Below, piece after piece: positions 23,593-64,000 of a DNA stretch of 64,000 nucleotides. Origin of the DNA: Chiloscyllium plagiosum. Lineage: Eukaryota. A program made the translations under genes and the position numbers. The notes under the pieces were generated by a model that saw only the letters and a list, made by a program, of their open reading frames with translations, did not search any database and was not told the origin of the DNA. The DNA is taken from NCBI RefSeq assembly GCF_004010195.1, contig NC_057719.1:11772603-11836602 (forward strand), written 5' to 3'. Every line of letters starts with the position of its first letter. Position 1 is the first letter of the stretch.

Positions 23593-23774
23593 GGTCAGAA
23601 GTCACATGACACCAGATTGTAGTTCAACAAATTTATTTGAATTCACAAACTTTCAGAGTGCTGCTCCTTCATCAAATAAAGCTTGTGATTTTAAATAAAC
23701 CTGTGGGATTGTAACCTAGTATTGTGTGATTTCTGATCTTGTCCACCCCAGTTCAACTAGCACCTCCATCTCAT
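23593..23774. mobile_element. Penelope-like terminal repeat in inverted (fold-back) arrangement, degenerate
   Basis: Arms of ~55 bp are imperfect reverse complements; homologous to 62549-62634 and 52520-52666; decayed hammerhead on the minus strand. Confidence 0.7.
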
Positions 23775-23924
23775 TATCTGATATGAGCAGAAAGGTGTCT
23801 TTATATGTGGCTAGACAGCATATCTCTGTATATCAGCTGCTCCTATTCTCAACACTTGATTCTCTCATCCACCCCCCCCCCCCAAAAAAAAGTTATTTTT
23901 AAGGCTTTATATTTATCACAAACT

Positions 23925-24650: not shown

Positions 24651-24722
24651 AAACTCATGGTGAGCTGCCTTGAATACACCTCAGTGTCTTGATTAGGCTG
24701 TGTTGCACAGAGGTTGAGTTGT

Positions 24723-25036
24723 GGGTGGCACGGTGGCTCAGTGGTTAGCACTGCTGTCTCACAGCACCAGGGTCCCAGGTTTGATTCCAGACTCGGGTGA
24801 CTGTCTGTATGGAGTTTGCACATTCTCCCCGTGTCTGCGTGGGTTTCCTCCAGGTGCTCCGGTTTCCTCCCACAGTCCAAAGATATGCAGGTCAGGTGAA
24901 TGGGCCATTCTAAATTGTCCATAGTGTTGGGTGCATTAGTCAGAGGGAAATGGGTCTGGGTGGGTTAGTCTTCGGAGAGTCGATGTGGACTTGTTGGGCC
25001 GAAGGGCCTGTTTCTACACTGTAGAGAATCTAATCT
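24723..25036 (+). mobile_element. HE1-like V-SINE, full length
   Basis: A/B boxes, V-domain, and tail ending gagaatctaatc. Confidence 0.9.
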
Positions 25037-25689
25037 TTAAAAAAAAACTGCAAATGGTGGGTCTGTAATCGCATGACATTGAGTAGGATCAGCAAATTTC
25101 CTTCCCTGATGCATGAGTAAACCAAAGGTTTTTAATAACAATTCAGTAGTTTCATGATTTATTATTACTGACGCTAGCATATTTATTTCATGTTTATTTC
25201 CAGATTTATTTCATGTGACTCAATTTAAATTCCCCAACTGCCTTAGTGAGATTTGAACTCCTAATCCAAACTTAGTCGAGTAATATAACTGTCACTGCAT
25301 CCCTGTAAACTTTCAGCTTTCATAAAGGTGCCTGATATGTCAAATGTTAAACAACTGTGGCTTAAAGTAGGTCTAATTTCTGTTTGAGTATGTTGTCTTT
25401 GGCACAGTAGAGGTTTATTAAAGATATGTTTATGAATTCCACAAGCGCACACTGCCATAGCGGTACAGGACAGAGAAAGCTTTACTGCATATCTAAATGT
25501 TTAGCACAACATTATAATCTGGTTACAGCACAGGAAGAGGCCCTTTGGACTATTGTGTCCATGCCAACTCTGAACAGCTCAACCAGTCGACCCCACTATC
25601 CAATCTTAAAAAGATACATTTTTTTAAATTTCAAAAGCATCAGGATGTATGGAGAGAAAGCGGGAATATAGCATTAAGATAGAGGATCA

Positions 25690-27205: not shown

Positions 27206-28250
27206 TCCCCATTTCTCATCAGTCCTAAATGTTTTACTCCATATCCTTTAGATACTTATTCCTCGTTCTGGACTCTCCCATCATCAGGAACACTATTCCT
27301 GCATCTACCCTGTCTAATCGTGTTCGAATTTTAAATCTGAGGTTTCTCCCCATACACTTCCCCCCCCACCAAATCATCACCACCAATCTTCTGAACTCTT
27401 GCAAGTGTAATCCTAACATTCACTCTCCTCTTATGTCAGTCCTGCCATTTCAACAAGATTCTTCACTGCACTCTGGATACCAAGAATATCCTTCATCAGA
27501 TGAGATTAAAACTGCGATAACATTGCCAGGTGTAGATTAGATTAGATTACAGTGTGGAAACAGGCCCTTCAGCCCAACAAGTCCACACCGACCCGCCGAA
27601 GCGAAACCCACCCATACCCCTACATTTACCCCTTACCTAACACTACGGGCAATTTAGTATGGCCAATTCACCTAACCTGCACATCTTTGGACTGTGGGAG
27701 GAAACCGGAGCACCCGGAGGAAACCCACGCAGACACTGGGAGAACGTGCAAACTCCACACAGTCAGTCGCCTGAGGCGGGAATTGAACCCGGGTCTCTGG
27801 TGCTGTGAGGCAGCAGTGCTAACCACCGTGCCCCCCTAATCTGTCACTTAGCCCATTGGCCTATCTGGTCAAGATCCTGTTCTAATCTGATCTTGCTTAA
27901 ACCCCTCTCTCCATATCCCCCATTCACAATTTGTAGCCATTTCGATGATCTGCCTTCCTGCTTCTACTGCCAAAGTGGATAAGATATCCATATTAGACTG
28001 ACATGAATTTGTCCATTTTCTCGGCTGGTCCAAAGCATCCATGTATACTCCCCCAGTTCTCCCTCCAACCCAGCTTTGTCATCTGCATGCTGAATTTATT
28101 AATAACATATTTCATTTTGTTCCCTCATCTAAATCGTTAATATATGTTGTGAATGAGTCTTAACACTTATCCCTGCGGTTCCCCACTAGTCCTCCCTGCC
28201 AAGCCGAGAAAGACCAGTTTATTCCTATTTTATTTCCTGTTTGCCAGGCA
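27206..28250 (-). mobile_element. CR1 fragment interrupted by a V-SINE
   Basis: LDRVDAGIVFLMMGESRTR motif; RT-region remnants at 27950-28250. Confidence 0.7.
27533..27836 (-). mobile_element. HE1-like V-SINE
   Basis: Nearly identical to 2575-2881; (TCTAA)n tail. Confidence 0.92.
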
Positions 28251-33214: not shown

Positions 33215-34775
33215 AGAGATATTAAAATTGCCAATGCAACACTTTTATTTGAAAAGAAAAGGAGACAGAAAACAAACTAAGCCAGTTAGCTTAAAGCCCT
33301 GTGAAAATGTTGAGTCTATTATAATGGATGTAATAACAGCGTTTTAAGAATGCATAATATGATCAAACATTTCAGCATGGCTTCATGAAGAGGCAACCAT
33401 GCCTGACAAATTTACTAGACTTATGAGAGGCAGTTAACAAATAGGATAGATAGAGGAAGCAGTGGATGTAATATGTTCTGAAAATCCAAATATATTTGAC
33501 AAGATTGCACATTAGGCTACTTAATAAGATGAACCGATAGTGTTGGATGTGGTATATTTGTGTAGACCGGATTGGAATAAAGTGGGCATTTTCAGGTTGG
33601 CAGCTTTAACCATCGGCATCAGTGCTGGGGCCACAAATACTGGAAGGCAAGTGGTGAGAATGAGAGTCTGCAGAGGGAGATTGCCAAGGAGGCAAATAGG
33701 AGGCAAAATCTTGGCTGATGGAATATGATGTGGGGTTATGTACTTTGGTAGGAAGGATAGAGGAGCTGAACATTATTTCAGTGGCCCGAAAGACTACAAG
33801 CCAGAGAACAGTGGGATCTGGGAGTCTTCATACATGAGTCACAAAATGCTGGCATCTAAATTCAGTGGGTAAAAGGTAAAGCAGACAATATTGGCCTTTA
33901 TTCCAAAGCAAATGGAATATAAAAGTCAGGAGGTTTGCTAAAACTGTACAAGGCACTAATCAGATCACAGTTGGAATACTGTGAACAATTTTGGGCCCCT
34001 AATTATTCATTAGGCTGATGCCATCTGTGGAGGAACTGTCATATGAGGAGAGGTTGAGTAGATTGGGCCTGTACTCATTGTCTCCCATTCCCCTATATTT
34101 CAATCTGATTGAAGCATACTAGAGGACTTGGAAGGATTGATGTGGAAAGGTTGCTTTTCCCCCTTGTGCAGAGGCTAGGACCAGCGAGCATAATAAAGGA
34201 TCACAACAAATAGGTCAGAAATGATTTTTTTATTACATTATATTTATTTATTTATTTTTATTTTATTTCTTTATTTTTATTTCATTAGTGTGGAAACAGG
34301 CTCTTCGGCCCAACAAGTCCACACCAACCCACCGAAGCGCAACCCACCCATACCCCTACATTTACCCCTTACCTAACACTATGGGTAATTTAGCATGGCC
34401 AATTCACCTGACCTGCACATCTTTGGACTGTGGGAGGAAACCAGAGCACCCGGAGGAAACCCACGCAGACATGGGGAGAACGTGCAAACTCCACACAGTG
34501 GAACTCCACACAGTCGGAATTGAACCCGGGTCTCTGGCGCTGTGAGGCAGCAGTGCTAACCACTGTGCCACCGTGCCGTCCACATTTTCTCATCAGTGTT
34601 GTGGAATTCTTTACCATGAGGGCTGTTGAGGCTGAGACAGATATTTTTTGTTTTGATCAGTAAGAGATTAGAGAGTTATGGAGAAAAGGCAGGAAACTGG
34701 AGCTGATTAATGAGTGTATTTGCCATGAGCCAATGGTGAAGCAGACTTGATGGGCCAAAGGGCTTACTGCTGCTG
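33215..34775 (+). mobile_element. Old CR1 ORF2 fragment interrupted by a V-SINE
   Basis: QHGFMKR.PCLTNLL and LKLYKALIRSQLEYCEQFWAP motifs; CR1 3' end near 34770. Confidence 0.75.
34225..34581 (-). mobile_element. HE1-like V-SINE with expanded A-rich tail
   Basis: Body at 34286-34581; T-rich run at 34225-34285; small internal duplication of aactccacacagt. Confidence 0.9.
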
Positions 34776-43103: not shown

Positions 43104-43594
43104 AGAAGTGGGGATGTTCGCTACCGATTGCGCAATGTTCAGCTACATTCATGACTCATTGAAGCAGGCTATGTTCAAATGCAACAAGATCTGGACTTGT
43201 GCTGACAAGTAGCAAGTAACATTAATTCCACATATATACCAGACAATGACCGTCCCCAACAAGAGACAATATGACTACCACCCCATGACATTTAAGAATG
43301 TTACCATCACTGAATCACCCACTATCAACATCCTTGTGTTTACCACTGACCGGAAACTCATCTGGCTTTGTCATGTAAATACAGTGCCTACAAGAGCTGG
43401 CCAGAGGTTGGGAGTATTGCAGTGAGTAACTCACCTCTGATGGAATACTACTCACTTGTCTGGATGAGTGCAGCTCCAACAAGCTTGACACTATGCAGTA
43501 TAAAGCAGCTTGATTGATTGGTACCGCAGCCGCAAGCACCAATTCCCTCCACCACCAATACTTAGGAGTAGCAGTGTACACTATCTACAAGGTG

Positions 43595-43900
43595 GCGGCA
43601 CAGTGGTTAGCACTGCTCCCTCACAGCGCCAGAGACCCGGGTTCAATTCCCGACTCAGGCGACTGACTGTGTGGAGTTTGCACATTCTCCCTGTGTCTGC
43701 GTGGGTTTCCTCCGGGTGCTCCGGTTTCCTCCCACAGTCCAAAAGATGTGCAGGTCAGGTGAATTGGCCATGCTAAATTGCCCGTAGTGTTAGGTAAGGG
43801 GTAAATGTAGGGGTATGGGTGGGTTGCGCTTTGGCGGGTCAGTGTGGACTTGTTGGGCCGAAGGGCCTGTTTCCATACTGTAAGTAATCTAAAAAAAAAA
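43595..43900 (+). mobile_element. HE1-like V-SINE inserted in LINE-A
   Basis: A/B boxes, V-domain and A-tail. TSD AAGGTG at 43589-43594 and 43899-43904. Confidence 0.92.
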
Positions 43901-45598: not shown

Positions 45599-47459
45599 GA
45601 GAATGTAAGGATTGCAGGTGCTGGAGCGTCAGAGTCAAAAAGTGTGGTGCAGGAAAAAACAGCAGGTCAGGCCAAGGAGCAGGGGGATGGACATTTCAGG
45701 CATAAACTCTTCAGGACTGTGATGGGGAGTGGAGTAGAAAGGAGGCTAAGAGAAAAATATGGGTGAGATGGAGGGAGGTAGCTGGGAAGGTGGTAATTGG
45801 ATCTAGATGGGGGTGATTGTGATAGGTCGGTGGGGAGTGGATGGGGGGGGTGGGAAGGAAGATGGACAGGTGGTACAGGTTAAGAGGGTGGTGTCGAGTT
45901 GCAGGTTTCAATCTGGGATAGGGTGGGGGGAGGGGAGATTTGGAAACTAGGTAAAGTTGATGTTGATGCCAATTGGTTAAAGGGTCCCAAGGTGGAAGAT
46001 TAGGCATTGTTCCTCCAGTAGTCGGGTGTCTTGGATTTGGCAGTGGAGGACGCCTAGGACTTGCATATCCTTGGGTGGAGTGGGAGCGGGAGTTGAAGTG
46101 GTCAGCCACAGGGCAGTGGGGTTATTTGATGCAAATGTCCCAGAGATGTTTCCTGAAATGTTCCACAAGTTGACGCTCTGTATCCAGGAAGTAAACGAGA
46201 CCACATAGAGAGTAACGGACACAGTAGATGAGATATTTTGATGTGCAGGGAAATCTCTGCTGGTTGTGAGAAGATCCTTTAGGACCTTGGACGGAGGTGA
46301 GTGGGGAAGTATGAGTCCAGATTTTACTCCTCTTGTGGCCGCAAGGGAAGGTGCCAGGAGTAGAGAGTGGGTTGATTTGGGGGGGGCGTTGGAGAGTAGA
46401 GGACCTAATGAAAGAGTCACAGAGGGAATGGTTTCTGCAGAATGCTGATAGGAGTAGGGAGGGAAATATATCTCTGGTAGTAGTGGGGTCTGATTGTAGG
46501 TGATGGAAATGGCGGAGAATAACGTGCTGTATCCAGATAGTTGGGTGGATGGTGAGGACCAGGGGGATTCTATCGTTATTGCATTTGGAGGGGTGGGTTC
46601 AAGGCGGAGGTGCTGGAAGTGGAGGAGATGTGCTGGAGGGCATAATTGATCACATGGCAGGGTGGGGGAAATTGCGGTCCTGGAAATGGGAGGCCATCTG
46701 GCATGTCCTGGAGTGGAATTGCTCCTCCTGGGTGCAGCAGATATGGCAGAGGCGGAGAAATTGAGAGGACGGGATGGCCCTTTTACAGGAAGGGAGATGG
46801 AAGGAGGTGTAGCCCAGGTAGCTGTGTGAGTCAATGGATGATCCCTGGAATGATAGGTCTAACATATGAGGAACGGCTGAGGATCCTGGGATTGTATTCA
46901 TTGGAGTTTAGAAGATTAAGGGGAGATCTAATAGAAACTTACAAGATAATACATGGCTTGGAGAGGGTGGACGCTAGGAAATTGTTTCCGTTAGGCGAGG
47001 AGACGAGGACCCGTGGACACAGCCTTAGAATTAGAGGGGGCAAATTCAGAACAGAAATGCGGAGACATTTCTTCAGCCAGAGAGTGGTGGGCCTGTGGAA
47101 TTCATTGCCGCAGAGTGCAGTGGAGGCTGGGATGCTAAATGTCTTCAAGGCAGAGATTGATAAATTTTTGATGTCACAAGGAATTAAAGGCTACGGGGAG
47201 AGTGCGGGTAAGTGGAGCTGAAATGCCCATCAGCCATGATTGAATGGCGAAGTGGACTCGATGGGCCAAATGGCCTTACTTCCGCTCCTATGTCTTATGG
47301 TCTTATAGTTTGAAATAGATGTCCGTGTTGAGTCTGGAGATGAAGAGGTGAGGAAGGGGAGGGAGGTGTCCGAGATAGTCCAGATGAACTTGAGGTCTGG
47401 GTGGAAGGTGTTCGTGAAGTTGATGAACTGTTCCACCTTCTCACTGGAGCACGAGAGAA
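45599..47459 (-). mobile_element. Penelope-like element (Neptune-like), 5'-truncated: RT C-terminus, Cys linker, GIY-YIG, terminal repeat
   Basis: EQFINFTNTFHPDLKFIWTISDTSLPFL; SCKRAIPSSQFLRLCHIC; FPCTSKYLIYCVRYSLCGLVYFLDTERQLVEHFRKHL. TSD CACTCCC(C/T)AGG at 45588-45598 and 47460-47470. Confidence 0.85.
46838..47306 (+). mobile_element. Young CR1 3' end nested in the Penelope element
   Basis: MIPGMIGLTYEERLRILGLYSLEFRRLRGDLIETYKI...WNSLP, open to the stop codon; tail tatgtcttatggtcttat. Confidence 0.92.
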
Positions 47460-50306: not shown

Positions 50307-50447
50307 ATGCGGCTGATCAGAGAGACCTTTCAGTTCCTGGCCCTCATCTCTCTCACCACTTTCTTGGTCTTGCTCCAGGCACTGCCAACCGGCAAACTGC
50401 AGCCGAGCAGTCAGCAGGGAACGAGCAGTAGCAGCACGGGAGGCGAG
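50307..50447 (+). CDS. ISM2: Isthmin, first coding exon (signal peptide)
   Basis: ATG at 50307; MRLIRETFQFLALISLTTFLVLLQALPTGKLQPSSQQGTSSSSTGGE has a basic N-region, hydrophobic core and LQA-LP cleavage-like site. GAG|GTGAGT donor, phase 0, compatible with the next exon. Confidence 0.82.
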
Positions 50448-52519: not shown

Positions 52520-52666
52520 GTCAGAAGTCACATGACACCAGATTATAGTCCAACAGGTTTATTGAAATCACAAGCTTTTGTAGCATTGCCCCATCGTCAG
52601 GTGAACGTCACTAACATTGACTTCTGACTTTGTCCATCCCAATCCAACATTAACATCTCCACATCA
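52520..52666. mobile_element. Penelope-like terminal repeat mini-insertion with inverted end
   Basis: Homologous to 62549-62634. TSD TACT(C/T)GGAGGAA at 52508-52519 and 52667-52678; decayed hammerhead on the minus strand. Confidence 0.75.
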
Positions 52667-52789
52667 TACTTGGAGGAATTCAGCCCTGTAACTTGACCTG
52701 TCGTTTATTCTGTTCTCAGCATAGTTTCAGTAATCGTGGATTTGGGAGGGGACGATTGAGTTACACTTTCTGCTCCAGATCCCAGTGTG

Positions 52790-54589: not shown

Positions 54590-54880
54590 CTGACTGAGCC
54601 AGTATTTATTGCCCAGATGGTAGTTCAGAGTTATCCACATTGCTCTGGTCTGGAGTCGTGTGTCGGCTAGACCAAGTGAAGATGACACATTCCTTTCCTA
54701 AAGAACATTAGTGGGTTTTAACCATCGACAAGAGGTCATTAGGCCAGCTTTCAATTTCAGACTTTTGTTGAATTCAAATTATCACCACCTGCCTTGGTGA
54801 GATTCAAACCCATGTCCCTAGAACAACGGCCTGGGGTTCTGAATTATTAGGCTAGTGATATTACCACAATATCACCCCCA
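54590..54880 (-). mobile_element. SINE family B
   Basis: Antisense head with B box (gagattcaaaccc) and body (ccacattgctctggtctggagtc). Confidence 0.7.
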
Positions 54881-55597
54881 TCACGACATTCCAGAAATTC
54901 ATAGTAATCCACATAGGCTCTTTCACAAGGGGCAATGAACTTCTCTGATACAAGGCCGGCCTCATTGGATTATGCAGCACAGAATGAGGCCTTTCAGCCC
55001 ATTATGCCTGTGAAAGCACTTTCCAATCAGTCCACTTGCTCATAACCCTGTGAGCTATTCTACTTAGAACCACTTCTCCAATTCCTTTTGGAAAGTTACT
55101 GTTGAAATTGCCATTTCAGGCAGCACACTCCATATCACAAGCTCTTGCCGGTTTAAAGAGACTTTTCTGCTCCCGGCTCTTTTGAATGAGCATTTATGAA
55201 GATAACCAATGGGCAGAACTGGTCTTAAACAGTCAACTTCACTGCATAGCCCAGTAACTAAACTTGCAAACTCCCCCGCACATGAAGGAAAATCCACCGA
55301 TGAATTAAGTTGAAATCATGGCTTTATTTAACAGGCCCTTATTCTCTGAAGTTTTGAAGATTGAGGGGTAATCCCACTGAAAGATATTAAATTTCTGAGA
55401 GGGTTTGATGATACGATAAATGTTAAGAGATTGTTTCCTCTGGCTGGACAATTTAGTCCTTAAGGATATACCTTGATCATTTAGGACTGAAATGAGGCTG
55501 TGAATCTTTGGAATTCTCTACCCCAGTGAGACACGGATTCTCCATCAAATGCAGAAGAAGCTAGAGAAGCTCAGCCAGTCTGGCAGCATCTGTGGAG

Positions 55598-56146
55598 GTA
55601 AAAACAATGACTGCAGACGCTGGAAACCAGATTCTGGATTAGTGGTGCTGGAAGAGCACAGCAGTTCAGGCAGCATCCAAGGAGCTTCGAAATCGACATT
55701 TCGGGCAAAAGCCCTTCATCAGGAATAAAGGCAGTGAGCCTGAAGCGTGGATAGATAAGCTAGAGGAGGGTGGGGGTGTGGAGAAAGTAGCGTAGAGTCC
55801 GTGTGGGATGAGTTGGTTACGGATGTGGCTGTGGTAGCGAGTTTGTTTCACGACATGGTTGAAGAGCTTCAGGGCAGAGGAAATGACCTGGGAGTTGCAG
55901 TGGGAGAGGGACTCCCTGAAATTCTTGTAGAGAGAGGAGGAAAACTTCTTCAAGGCAGGCATCCTTGCAAGAGGATTCGCAGTAGGGTTAAAATCAATGA
56001 GGTAAAAACAATGACTGCAGATGCTGGAAACCAGATTCTGAATTAGTGGTGCCTTTATTCCTGATGAAGGGCTTTTGCCCGAAACGTCGATTTCGAAGCT
56101 CCTTGGATGCTGCCTGAACTGCTGTGCTCTTCCAGCACCACTAATC
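55598..56146 (-). mobile_element. Internally deleted Penelope-like element with direct and inverted terminal repeats
   Basis: Direct repeats begin at 55598 and ~56002 (gtaaaaacaatgactgcaga.gctggaaaccagattctg); inverted copy at 56051-56146; ORF start MPALKKFSSSLYKNF. TSD CAGCATCTG(T/A)GGAG at 55584-55597 and 56147-56160. Confidence 0.85.
56058..56092 (+). ncRNA. Minimal type I hammerhead ribozyme motif (PLE-associated)
   Basis: TC-CTGATGA-A-GGGC-TTTT-GCCC-GAAA-CGTC-GA; palindromic ACGT helix III; GUC cleavage triplet. Confidence 0.75.
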
Positions 56147-56754
56147 CAGCATCTGAGGAGAGATACGATATGACTTTCCTTCAGGAATATTATTCATGGA
56201 TTGTCCATCATTTGAATTTCTGCAAGTCAGGAGATTGACAGTTTTGTGCTGTTAAAGGGAGTCAGGAAGTGTCGAGTTAGGACGTGAAAATAACATTGAG
56301 GCAGAAGGTAGCCTTACTGAATATGGATCATGGACTGGATGACCTGATGCGGTTCCTATTTTATTCTCATGGCTAAGACCTCGTCTCAAGAGGCACACTC
56401 CGGCCTCGTGGGACAACAAGTATGCTGGGAGATCAAGCCACTCCCTGGAAAATTCCCATGAATTGATGTCAGTGCCCTGTATTTGGTCCATTCTTCAGGA
56501 TTTGTCTCTGTAGTTGGTCGCTGTGAAGGAATGTTAATGCTATACTCATCTGCTGAGAATCGTACCACAGGAAACCGCAAAAAATATAAAAAGCAAGGAA
56601 AAGAAGACATACATTAGACTGAGACAGAGAGAGAACAAAAACATTTATTCTGTGGGTTGGGAAGTTTCCCTTCACTGAATTTATCTTGGCAATGCTGTCA
56701 TTCTGACAGTTTACAAAGTCTGTGCCTTCTCTTTTGTCTCCAAAGATAGTCCTC

Positions 56755-61490: not shown

Positions 61491-61733
61491 GTCAAAAGCC
61501 AATCAATGCCGAGGTCGACTCAGAGGCCCGAGGAAAACAACAAGCTGGAGAGTTGGAAGCAGAACAGCCAGCAACACCACAAGCAGCGGTGGTCACCTCA
61601 ACAGACGCAGGGCACTCAGGCACAGCCAAACTTTGGGTCCAACTTGGAGGAAGTGGATCCTTTCGTCCTGGACCTGAAGAATTTCCCTGACCTGACAAAT
61701 GCAGATCTTAATGCTCAGAACCCAAATATTCAG
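61491..61733 (+). CDS. ISM2: Isthmin, second coding exon (243 nt, phase 0-0)
   Basis: ttccaaAG acceptor, CAG|GTGAG donor. Ends PFVLDLKNFPDLTNADLNAQNPNIQ, the conserved isthmin motif. ISM2 rather than ISM1 is inferred from its position downstream of SPTLC2. Confidence 0.88.
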
Positions 61734-62548
61734 GTGAGAGAAACAATTAATGACTTGTAAACAATAGCGGAGCTTGGGGAAAAGAGAAGTCCCCTTCCTT
61801 TTACAATTTGAGAGCAACTAACATGCAACCTTCTTCATCCATTCAAATCTCTTGAGGGAATGATCTACACAATCTCTTATTCCCATACATTATTGAATAC
61901 ATTTCTGGAAATTCAGCCAACCCAACCACATATTCATCCAACTACTTGAATCGGTACAACATCACCTGTTTTTGTTGGGCATCATCTTGTTCCATGTTTG
62001 TTCTACTTGTGACTAAAATGATTTCAAGACTCCCAGACCCATTGTTCAATGAAGATCAAATGATTTGATGTAATTCATTGCTGCAGCATTAACCTGCAGA
62101 TGATTGAATACTGGAGTCTGCCTGATTCAATCTCTTTTGCATTGGACTGATACCAAATAATTTGATCAAAGGAGAATTTGTCCTACTTCTTTGCATGATC
62201 AATACTTCTATCGTCTTCTTCACCTTCCTTTTTTTTCCATCATCTTCTTTTCTCCAGCCTTGAAGATTTAATCACCAGTCCAACTGGATTGTGTCAAGCA
62301 CCACATGGCCAAATTGTCCTTTTCTAAAAACATCTACATTTTGAGTTCTTTCTCAGGAACAATGTCCAACTTCTTTTCTCTATCATTGTTTCATTAACAC
62401 TCTCTCCTCTCACTTTCATCATCGAATGAAAAGAGTCTACAAATGACAATGCTAGAGAGACCATGTGTTCAATTGACTCTGCTTCTCCCTCTTTTTCACC
62501 AGATTCTTGGGAAGGGTGCTGGTGTAGTAATAATGTCACTACAATAGT

Positions 62549-62634
62549 TAAATATCACACAACACCAGGTTATAGTCCAACAGGTTTAATTGGAAGCACT
62601 AGCTTTCGGAGCGCTGCTCCTTCATCAGGTGGTC
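62549..62634 (-). mobile_element. 86 bp mini Penelope terminal-repeat insertion
   Basis: Perfect 14 bp TSD GTCACTACAATAGT at 62535-62548 and 62635-62648. Confidence 0.88.
62597..62631 (-). ncRNA. Minimal type I hammerhead ribozyme motif
   Basis: Minus strand CAC-CTGATGA-A-GGAGC-AGC-GCTCC-GAAA-GC-TA-GTG: helix I CAC/GTG, 5 bp helix II, palindromic AGCT helix III, CUA triplet. Confidence 0.8.
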
Positions 62635-63363
62635 GTCACTACAATAGTAATCCAAAGCCAATGATCTCGGGACATGGGTTTGAAATCCACTGTGGCAGAT
62701 GGTGAAATTTGAATTCAATGACACAAGATCCAGAATTTTAAAAAGACCTGTAAGCACTATAAAAACCCTCTGGTTCACTAATGTTCATTAAGTCAGGAAT
62801 CTGCCATCCTAACCTGGTCTGGCCTACAGCAAGTCCAGACCCTAAGACTATAAGACGATAGGAACATGGGACTGGGATATCATAGCAATTACAGAAATGT
62901 GGCTCAGGGATGGGCAGGACTGGCAGCTTAATTTTCCAGGATACAAATGCTACAGGAAGGATAGAAAGAGAGGCAAGAGAGGAGGGTAATGGCACTTTTG
63001 ATAAGGGATAGCGTTACAGCTGTGCTGAGAGAGGATATGGAAATAAATCCAGGGAAGTTATTTGGGTGGAACCGAGAAATTGGAAAGGGATGATCACCTT
63101 ATTGGGATTGCATTATAGACTCCCTAATGGTCAGAGGGAAATTGAGAAACAACCTTGTAAGGAGATCTCAGCTATCTGTAAGAATAATAGGGTGGTTATG
63201 GTAGGGGATTTTAACTTTCCAAACATAGACTGGGACTGCCACAGTGTTAAGGGTTTAGATGGAAAGGAATTTGTTAAGTGTGTACATGAAAATTTTTCTG
63301 TTTCAGTATGTGGATGTACCCACTACAGAAGGTGCAAAACTTGATCTACTCTTGGGAAATAAG

Positions 63364-63454
63364 ATTCTGGATCAGTGGTGCTGGAAGAGCACAGCAATTC
63401 AGGCAGCATCCGAGGACAGGCAAAATCGACGTTTCGGGCAAAAGCCCTTCATCA
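63364..63454 (-). mobile_element. Mini Penelope terminal repeat with intact hammerhead core
   Basis: Minus strand CTGATGA-A-GGGC-TTTT-GCCC-GAAA-CGTC. TSD GGGAAATAAG at 63354-63363 and 63455-63464. Confidence 0.87.
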
Positions 63455-63746
63455 GGGAAATAAGGCAGGGCAAGTGACTGAGGTGTCAGTGGGGGAGCAC
63501 TTTGGGGCCAGCAACCATAATTCTATTATATTTAAAATAGTGATGGAAAAGGATAGACCAGATCTAAAAGCTGAAGTTCTAAATTGGAGAAAGGCCAATT
63601 TTGACAGTATTAGGCAAGAACTTTCGAAAGCTGATTGGAGGCAGATGTTTGCAAGTAAAGGGACGGCAGGAAAATGGGAAGCCTTCAGAAATGGGATAAT
63701 GAGAATTCAAAGAAAGTATATTCCTGTTAGGGTGAAAGGAAAGGCT

Positions 63747-63925
63747 TGATTCTGGATTAGTGGTGCTGTAAAAGCACAGCAGTTATACACAGCAGCATCC
63801 TGATGAAGGGCTTTTGCCCGAAATGTCGATTTTACTGCTCCTCGGGTGCTGTCTGAACTGCTGTGCTTTTACAGCACCACTAATCCAGAATCTGGTTTCC
63901 AGCATCTGCAGTCATTGTTTTTATC
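63747..63925 (+). mobile_element. Mini Penelope terminal repeat with inverted 5' arm and hammerhead motif
   Basis: TSD TGAAAGGAAAGGCT at 63733-63746 and 63926-63939; perfect 37 bp inverted repeat at 63748-63784 and 63856-63892; hammerhead at 63797-63830. Confidence 0.88.
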
Positions 63926-64000
63926 TGAAAGGAAAGGCTGGTAGGTATAGGGAATGCTGGATGACTAAAGAAATTGAGGATTTGGTTAAGAAAAAGAAAA

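Follow-up and report, generated by a model that had tools for sequence, protein, structure and literature searches.

The window analysed here is a 64,000-nt stretch of the Chiloscyllium plagiosum genome (GCF_004010195.1, contig NC_057719.1, positions 11,772,603 to 11,836,602 of the forward strand) that carries two coding exons of isthmin-2 (ISM2). Coding exon 1 starts at 50307 on the plus strand, coding exon 2 follows (Table 1), and no isthmin-2 exon was found after 61733 within the window; in an atlas search with the isthmin-2 exon the match scored only 0.75. Because both coding exons map to the plus strand upstream of it, the 86-bp insert that is the subject of this analysis lies in isthmin-2 intron 2, as the initial annotation had placed it, with its ribozyme antisense to the host gene. 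The insert stands between two perfect 14-bp copies of a target-site duplication (TSD), again as first described, where a 14-nt repeat at such offsets would arise by chance with a probability of about 5e-6. The sequence that it interrupts is an older SINE-like repeat, whose paralog in the window aligns to both flanks, leaves a gap over the insert and contains the duplicated 14 nt only once. Family contigs align out to 62546, 3 nt into the left TSD copy, and this overlap fits priming with a short microhomology. A TSD and 5′ truncation are insertion traits of endonuclease-bearing (EN+) Penelope-like elements (PLEs), and the insert has both. The original description of a non-coding, retrotransposed unit is supported.

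Table 1. Features of the insert, its surroundings and related copies, in window coordinates
Feature	Position	Strand	Remarks
Insert, 86 bp; 5′-truncated, tail-less end module of a putative PLE (family A)	62549..62634	-	
TSD, left copy (element's 3′ end)	62535..62548	.	identical to right copy; last 3 nt also match family continuation
TSD, right copy (element's 5′ end)	62635..62648	.	identical to left copy
Older SINE-like repeat interrupted by the insert	62520..62841	+	paralog at 54630-54900(-); self-blast 68% over 204 nt
Isthmin-2 coding exon 2	61491..61733	+	98% identity to isthmin-2-like protein of Chiloscyllium punctatum; fixes host strand
Minimal type I hammerhead motif	62597..62631	-	descriptor match and folding; C3 62628, G8 62623, G12 62607
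Helix I, 3 bp	62631-62629 paired with 62599-62597	-	
CUGAUGA box	62628-62622	-	followed by one extra A at 62621
Helix II, 5 bp, 3-nt loop		-	G 62620 paired with C 62608
GAAA box	62607-62604	-	
Palindrome AGCU	62604-62601	-	A17 at 62600; predicted cut between 62600 and 62599
AUUAAA hexamer, then GU-rich run; poly(A)-signal-like (inferred)	62585..62590	-	AAUAAA in 51-68% of family depth (row 62589)
Older family A copy, 82% identity, decayed hammerhead	52520..52667	-	inverted tail-bearing partner, degenerate TSD
Older family A copy, 79% identity	23594..23775	-	inverted tail-bearing partner at 23678-23775(+)
Family B hammerheads, 4-bp helix II, palindrome ACGU or decayed	32280-, 38774+, 45714-, 55722-, 56061+, 63455-, 63800+		

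The minus strand from 62631 to 62597 reads as a minimal type I hammerhead, letter for letter as the initial annotation had it from the window sequence. A descriptor of the minimal-hammerhead core (CUGANGA ... GAAA ... UH with helices I and II) finds it in the insert, and with helix I set to 3 bp it gives two matches in the window, 62597-62631(-) and 63800+. The marks described in PMC4209133 for such motifs, an extra nucleotide after position 9, a G10.1-C11.1 pair and a palindromic helix III, are present here as well, the last reduced to AGCU, and the assignment to the minimal, dimer type is supported. After dinucleotide shuffling, the motif is matched in 0/300 sequences with Watson-Crick pairs and in 2/300 once G-U pairs are allowed. 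Rfam returns 0 families at gathering score across the window and, at E<=10 near the locus, 6 weak unrelated matches with no hammerhead model among them. The folding z-scores of the motif region are also unremarkable (-0.9 to -1.4). Both results are unsurprising because this is a hammerhead without helix III. They are nevertheless the points in favour of a chance match or an assembly artefact, a reading to which we assign a negligible probability, since it is refuted by the shuffles, by contigs that cross the junctions (the left junction in 3/3 DNA runs) and by the depth of the family; the TSD is perfect and further family copies lie in the window.

Several smaller features accompany the motif. 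The GU-rich run that follows the poly(A)-signal-like hexamer falls within 62557-62590(-), and both family A hammerhead arms within isthmin-2 introns are antisense to the gene, an orientation that would avoid premature polyadenylation (n=2 only). A 2-nt insertion variant at 62596, just after helix I, makes up 3-8% of family depth and suggests a subfamily.

The insert belongs to a dispersed repeat family, here called family A. Contigs matching the 601-bp stretch number 55,003, 45,013 and 43,065 in the three DNA runs, with their depth concentrated over 62531-62635 and over a second repeat at the right edge of that stretch; the summed depth is not taken as copy number. Loose contig ends before 62546, beyond the 3′ end of the insert, share a common consensus (675-1025 contigs per run). 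Beyond the 5′ end, loose ends behind 62631/62633 also have a common continuation (173-448 contigs per place), where the agreement of only 0.42-0.44 indicates that many family copies stop there, although the mapping reference itself ends at 62633 and the piles of loose ends at this place are therefore partly built in. Opposite-strand joints at 62631/62633 represent inverted pairs. The three main family A copies in the window all end at the same 3′ point, and 2/3 have an inverted tail-bearing partner; an optional 3′ tail and inverted 5′-truncated partners are found in the other copies, while the copy at 62549-62634 has neither. Scans with two patterns matched 0 stretches in viral, metagenome and prokaryote genome contigs. 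As a separate observation, a ~300-bp repeat family with 82-96% identity occurs at 2575-2881, 27537-27835, 34279-34581, 43594-43893 and 24720-25052.

Because family copies share sequence beyond both ends, the 86 bp are best read as a truncation product. This weakens the original description of a mobile ribozyme unit, although a short-template model is kept in play by the way the 5′ ends cluster. Among the 10 copies with a hammerhead in the window, which come from two families, 8 start within ~10 nt upstream of the core, not at the cut site, which random truncation does not predict. This tally was made by eye from TSDs or inversion junctions, leaves out copies without a hammerhead and omits one motif row (23935+, 1/11), where only 14 nt match the family. 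The clustering may mean that a template RNA starts, or has a splice junction, at this place, as in D. virilis Penelope. Taken further, a dedicated short RNA would have been the source of the insert. This RNA would be a non-autonomous, SINE-like parasite of PLEs, with a transcript beginning at the hammerhead's front edge, where a start site or splice junction would lie, so that most copies would be full-length from a ~85-125-nt template and not truncations. Besides the tally, the direct opposite-strand joints at 62631/62633 speak for such a template, as do two published cases: the intron end of D. virilis Penelope maps to the 5′ end of helix I (within what PMC4209133 reports), and monomeric retrozyme derivatives of pLTRs are described in the main text of bioRxiv 10.64898/2026.07.22.740005. 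We nonetheless consider it rather unlikely: many contigs continue upstream with a common consensus, 2/10 window copies do so too, one of them into a decayed ORF, the reference end accounts for part of the loose-end piles, and counting only hammerhead-bearing copies biases the tally. One opposite-strand joint connects 62633 with 62599, the base directly behind the predicted cut (4, 4 and 8 contigs per run), and five other opposite-strand joints have similar support (62583: 2, 4 and 7 contigs), among the 15 of 115 joints listed. An enrichment at 62599 is not shown by these numbers, because other joints are similarly supported, 15/115 are listed, and helix I also gives symmetry at this place.

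A second family (family B) contributes seven of the hammerhead-bearing copies, and some of these have TSDs of their own. Two of them are in sense orientation relative to isthmin-2, with 56061+ in intron 1 and 63800+ in intron 2 at a distance of 7.7 kb; 56061+ keeps its palindrome. The inserts 63354-63464 and 63733-63940, with TSDs of ~10 and 14 bp, lie within one LINE-type endonuclease fragment, where the latter is an inverted pair, and at 55578-56155 a partial tandem and an inverted copy form the canonical PLE insertion layout. The decayed end of a Penelope-like ORF with GIY-YIG-like features occupies 45600-46900(-) and is followed by a family B hammerhead repeat. Its frame 46125-46598(-) has as nearest atlas clusters groups that carry GIY-YIG on 11-27% of their members (score 0.95, a lead only), and gave no Pfam match and no PDB sequence match. 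Pfam detected no GIY-YIG among 167 window frames of at least 75 aa; what it recognised were fragments of LINE-type repeats (RT, endonuclease, GDSL-like). The decayed ORF aligns too weakly with the sequence upstream of 55722 for the match to be used. As a point against a PLE origin, family A was nowhere in the window seen attached to an RT or GIY-YIG ORF. The tie between the second hammerhead family and a decayed GIY-YIG-like frame is a point for a PLE link. The cores are common to families A and B while their helices differ, which points to selection acting in the parent elements and not in the inserted copies.

We propose, with a probability of roughly 80%, that the insert arose when the terminal module (pLTR end) of a PLE with an endonuclease was retrocopied, and that this retrocopy was dead on arrival. 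The points in its favour are the TSD, the single target in the paralog, the loose-end consensus shared on both sides and the layout of the family; this layout, with 5′ truncation, inverted tail-bearing partners and TSD, supports the Penelope-like origin first suggested. The GIY-YIG endonuclease of the element would have nicked the target inside the older repeat. The 3′ end of the target, helped by ~3 nt of microhomology, would then have primed reverse transcription at the inner of two 3′ start points of the element, which in this proposal is why the optional tail is missing. The cDNA would have run ~86 nt, through an uncut hammerhead, and been joined a few bases upstream of the hammerhead, and repair would have left the 14-bp duplication. 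Sequence from either side of the cut site is present in the insert, so the template was uncut. In this retrocopy the hammerhead would be a passenger; it would have been maintained in the parent element, in which cleavage probably requires a dimer or the aid of an element protein. Whereas the enzyme, the priming step, the parental ORF and the inertness of the copy are drawn from known PLE biology, its anatomy, its TSD, the interruption of the older repeat, the longer family on both sides and its orientation are direct observations.

How old the insertion is can be judged from contigs of three DNA runs among the 24 runs listed, two from organism A and one from organism C, which bears another species label. 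In all three, contigs with unique flank cross the left junction and cover 21-25 nt of insert sequence, and one organism C contig spans 62608-62824, across the right junction. These junction overlaps are shorter than the 31 letters required for bridging, so that they strongly indicate the insertion without proving it; at the junctions, just 7/21 and 5/27 letters would agree with an empty allele, with mismatches far above those that the records leave unlisted. A joint that skips the insert, as an empty allele would give, is absent among the 15 of 115 joints listed, which is no proof of fixation. In the left flank (62300-62534, 235 bp) organism C differs from the window by 8 substitutions and 2 indels, ~3%, where one substitution and one indel are also seen in an organism A run. 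The insertion thus appears, from these contig sequences, to predate the split of the two species labels. A perfect 14-bp TSD pair is compatible with this, as it would stay perfect with a probability of ~0.65 at 1.5% divergence per copy; the one rate found in print is an assumed value (PMC4422223). The insert postdates the other family A copies of the window without being a fresh insertion, and the initial description of it as young is overstated, given both junctions in a run of the other species label with ~3% flank difference.

Whether the ribozyme could act at this locus depends on folds that it is predicted not to favour. For the 35-mer, a fraction of 0.11 of the molecules is predicted to have an open core with both helices I and II paired; this fraction is 0.003 in the 86-nt unit and 0.006 when flanks are included. 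For two 35-mers an inactive duplex (-25.5 kcal/mol) is predicted to be more stable than the double hammerhead (-16.3 kcal/mol); these figures are nearest-neighbour estimates without tertiary contacts or protein. The nearest family A copy, itself decayed, lies at a distance of 10 kb, which leaves no tandem partner of the same family, and a heterodimer with the neighbouring family B motif (63455-) was rejected, as ACGU cannot pair with AGCU. G12, the general base according to the account in PMC6155905, is changed in 14.5-16.1% of family depth, and its CpG neighbour in 20.6-23.6%. Loss of G12 at a CpG-like rate is what neutral decay would give, in a partial test whose variation table covers 8 insert positions and leaves the second CpG (62612) unlisted. 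Activity of this copy is unlikely because helix III cannot form in the monomer, the unit is predicted to fold away from the active shape and the family loses G12 at a CpG-like rate; solo and antisense, it is, on these predictions, most likely inert. The word intact in the initial annotation therefore holds for the letters but not for a solo antisense copy, lacking a same-family tandem partner, that is predicted to fold away from the active shape.

The published record points the same way. In PMC4209133 a monomeric minimal hammerhead was inactive and dimers were weak, and most motifs are single and ascribed to truncated PLEs. The hammerhead of an Anolis PLE is reported in PMC11167929 to need an element protein and to be dispensable for insertion in vitro, with uncut RNA as the main template and, within what that source presents, no read ends at the cut site in RNA data. 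Of the Xenopus dimer elements in the main text of bioRxiv 10.64898/2026.07.22.740005, 1/9 was cleaved. Against this background it is very improbable that an antisense or read-through transcript is cut here between 62600 and 62599, with an effect on isthmin-2 or on the antisense RNA, by way of trans pairing with another AGCU-type copy or help from a PLE protein. Core and helices are letter-perfect although the insertion appears older than the species split, and partners for pairing in trans would be abundant; however, 35 nt unchanged at 1.5% divergence are likely without selection, the ribozyme is antisense to the host gene, the inactive duplex is the pairing predicted to be favoured, the nearest same-strand motif is of the ACGU type, and 8/9 of the Xenopus elements showed no cleavage.

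The copy at 62549-62634 is very probably a truncated PLE end with a known minimal hammerhead, a kind already in print, and the single locus matters little, since similar copies number in the tens of thousands. The family itself has a modest value: its very high copy number makes it a good data set, which could address the role of the hammerhead in vivo and the question of why copies begin just upstream of the hammerhead and not at the cut. Only this clustering of 5′ starts can claim to be new at all, and it belongs to the family rather than to the copy at 62549-62634. If a dedicated short template were real, it would define a SINE-like class for PLEs. It is conceivable, though we think it improbable, that a mini-retroposon headed by the hammerhead has filled shark genomes, in the form of a short RNA that begins at the front edge of the ribozyme and is copied in trans by a PLE protein. 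The four-base palindrome of each family (AGCU; ACGU in family B) would then serve as a family-specific pairing code by which dispersed copies cut only their own kind, and some inverted partners would have been primed from ribozyme-cut RNA (joints at 62599).

Family A was not found in the searchable parts and supplements of PMC4209133; the supplements of bioRxiv 10.64898/2026.07.22.740005 may list the shark families. Among the mostly open papers returned by full-text searches on Penelope elements of sharks (Chondrichthyes), combined with hammerhead or Neptune, and on shark repeat landscapes, none describes family A as far as listing or text shows. Among intronic hammerheads, the domesticated RECK/HH9 type is sense to its host, has a canonical helix III with tertiary contacts and sits at a single conserved locus (as characterised in PMC6155905); this identity was rejected for the insert, which is antisense, without helix III and part of a high-copy family. 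The non-LTR (animal) retrozymes of bioRxiv 10.64898/2026.07.22.740005 resemble it in being non-coding, related to pLTRs and dispersed as monomers with a type I hammerhead, but in that text they are defined by tandem units with at least two hammerheads, while the insert is a solo copy with a TSD. A retrozyme array was rejected on this tandem-unit trait, with the nearest family A copy 10 kb off and decayed. The Anolis element PAc, as presented in PMC11167929, and family A share a spacing of 26 nt from the AUG within CUGAUGA to the cut; in family A, where the cut is a predicted one, the frame of this AUG closes after 8 codons, so that the ORF is not started as in PAc. The TSD of 14 bp is longer than the 8-10 bp given for the rotifer PLE examples. 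With the minimal hammerheads of PLEs, as set out in PMC4209133, the shark insert agrees in core, helices and palindrome, while its helix I has 3 bp and it is known here from its end module only. In PMC8557442 and PMC3846280, PLE insertions are described as 5′-truncated, with an inverted copy next to them and, optionally, a tail of 30-40 bp. With the EN+ elements treated there (Penelope/Poseidon, Neptune), family A shares 5′ truncation, TSD, optional tail, inverted partners and an uncut hammerhead.
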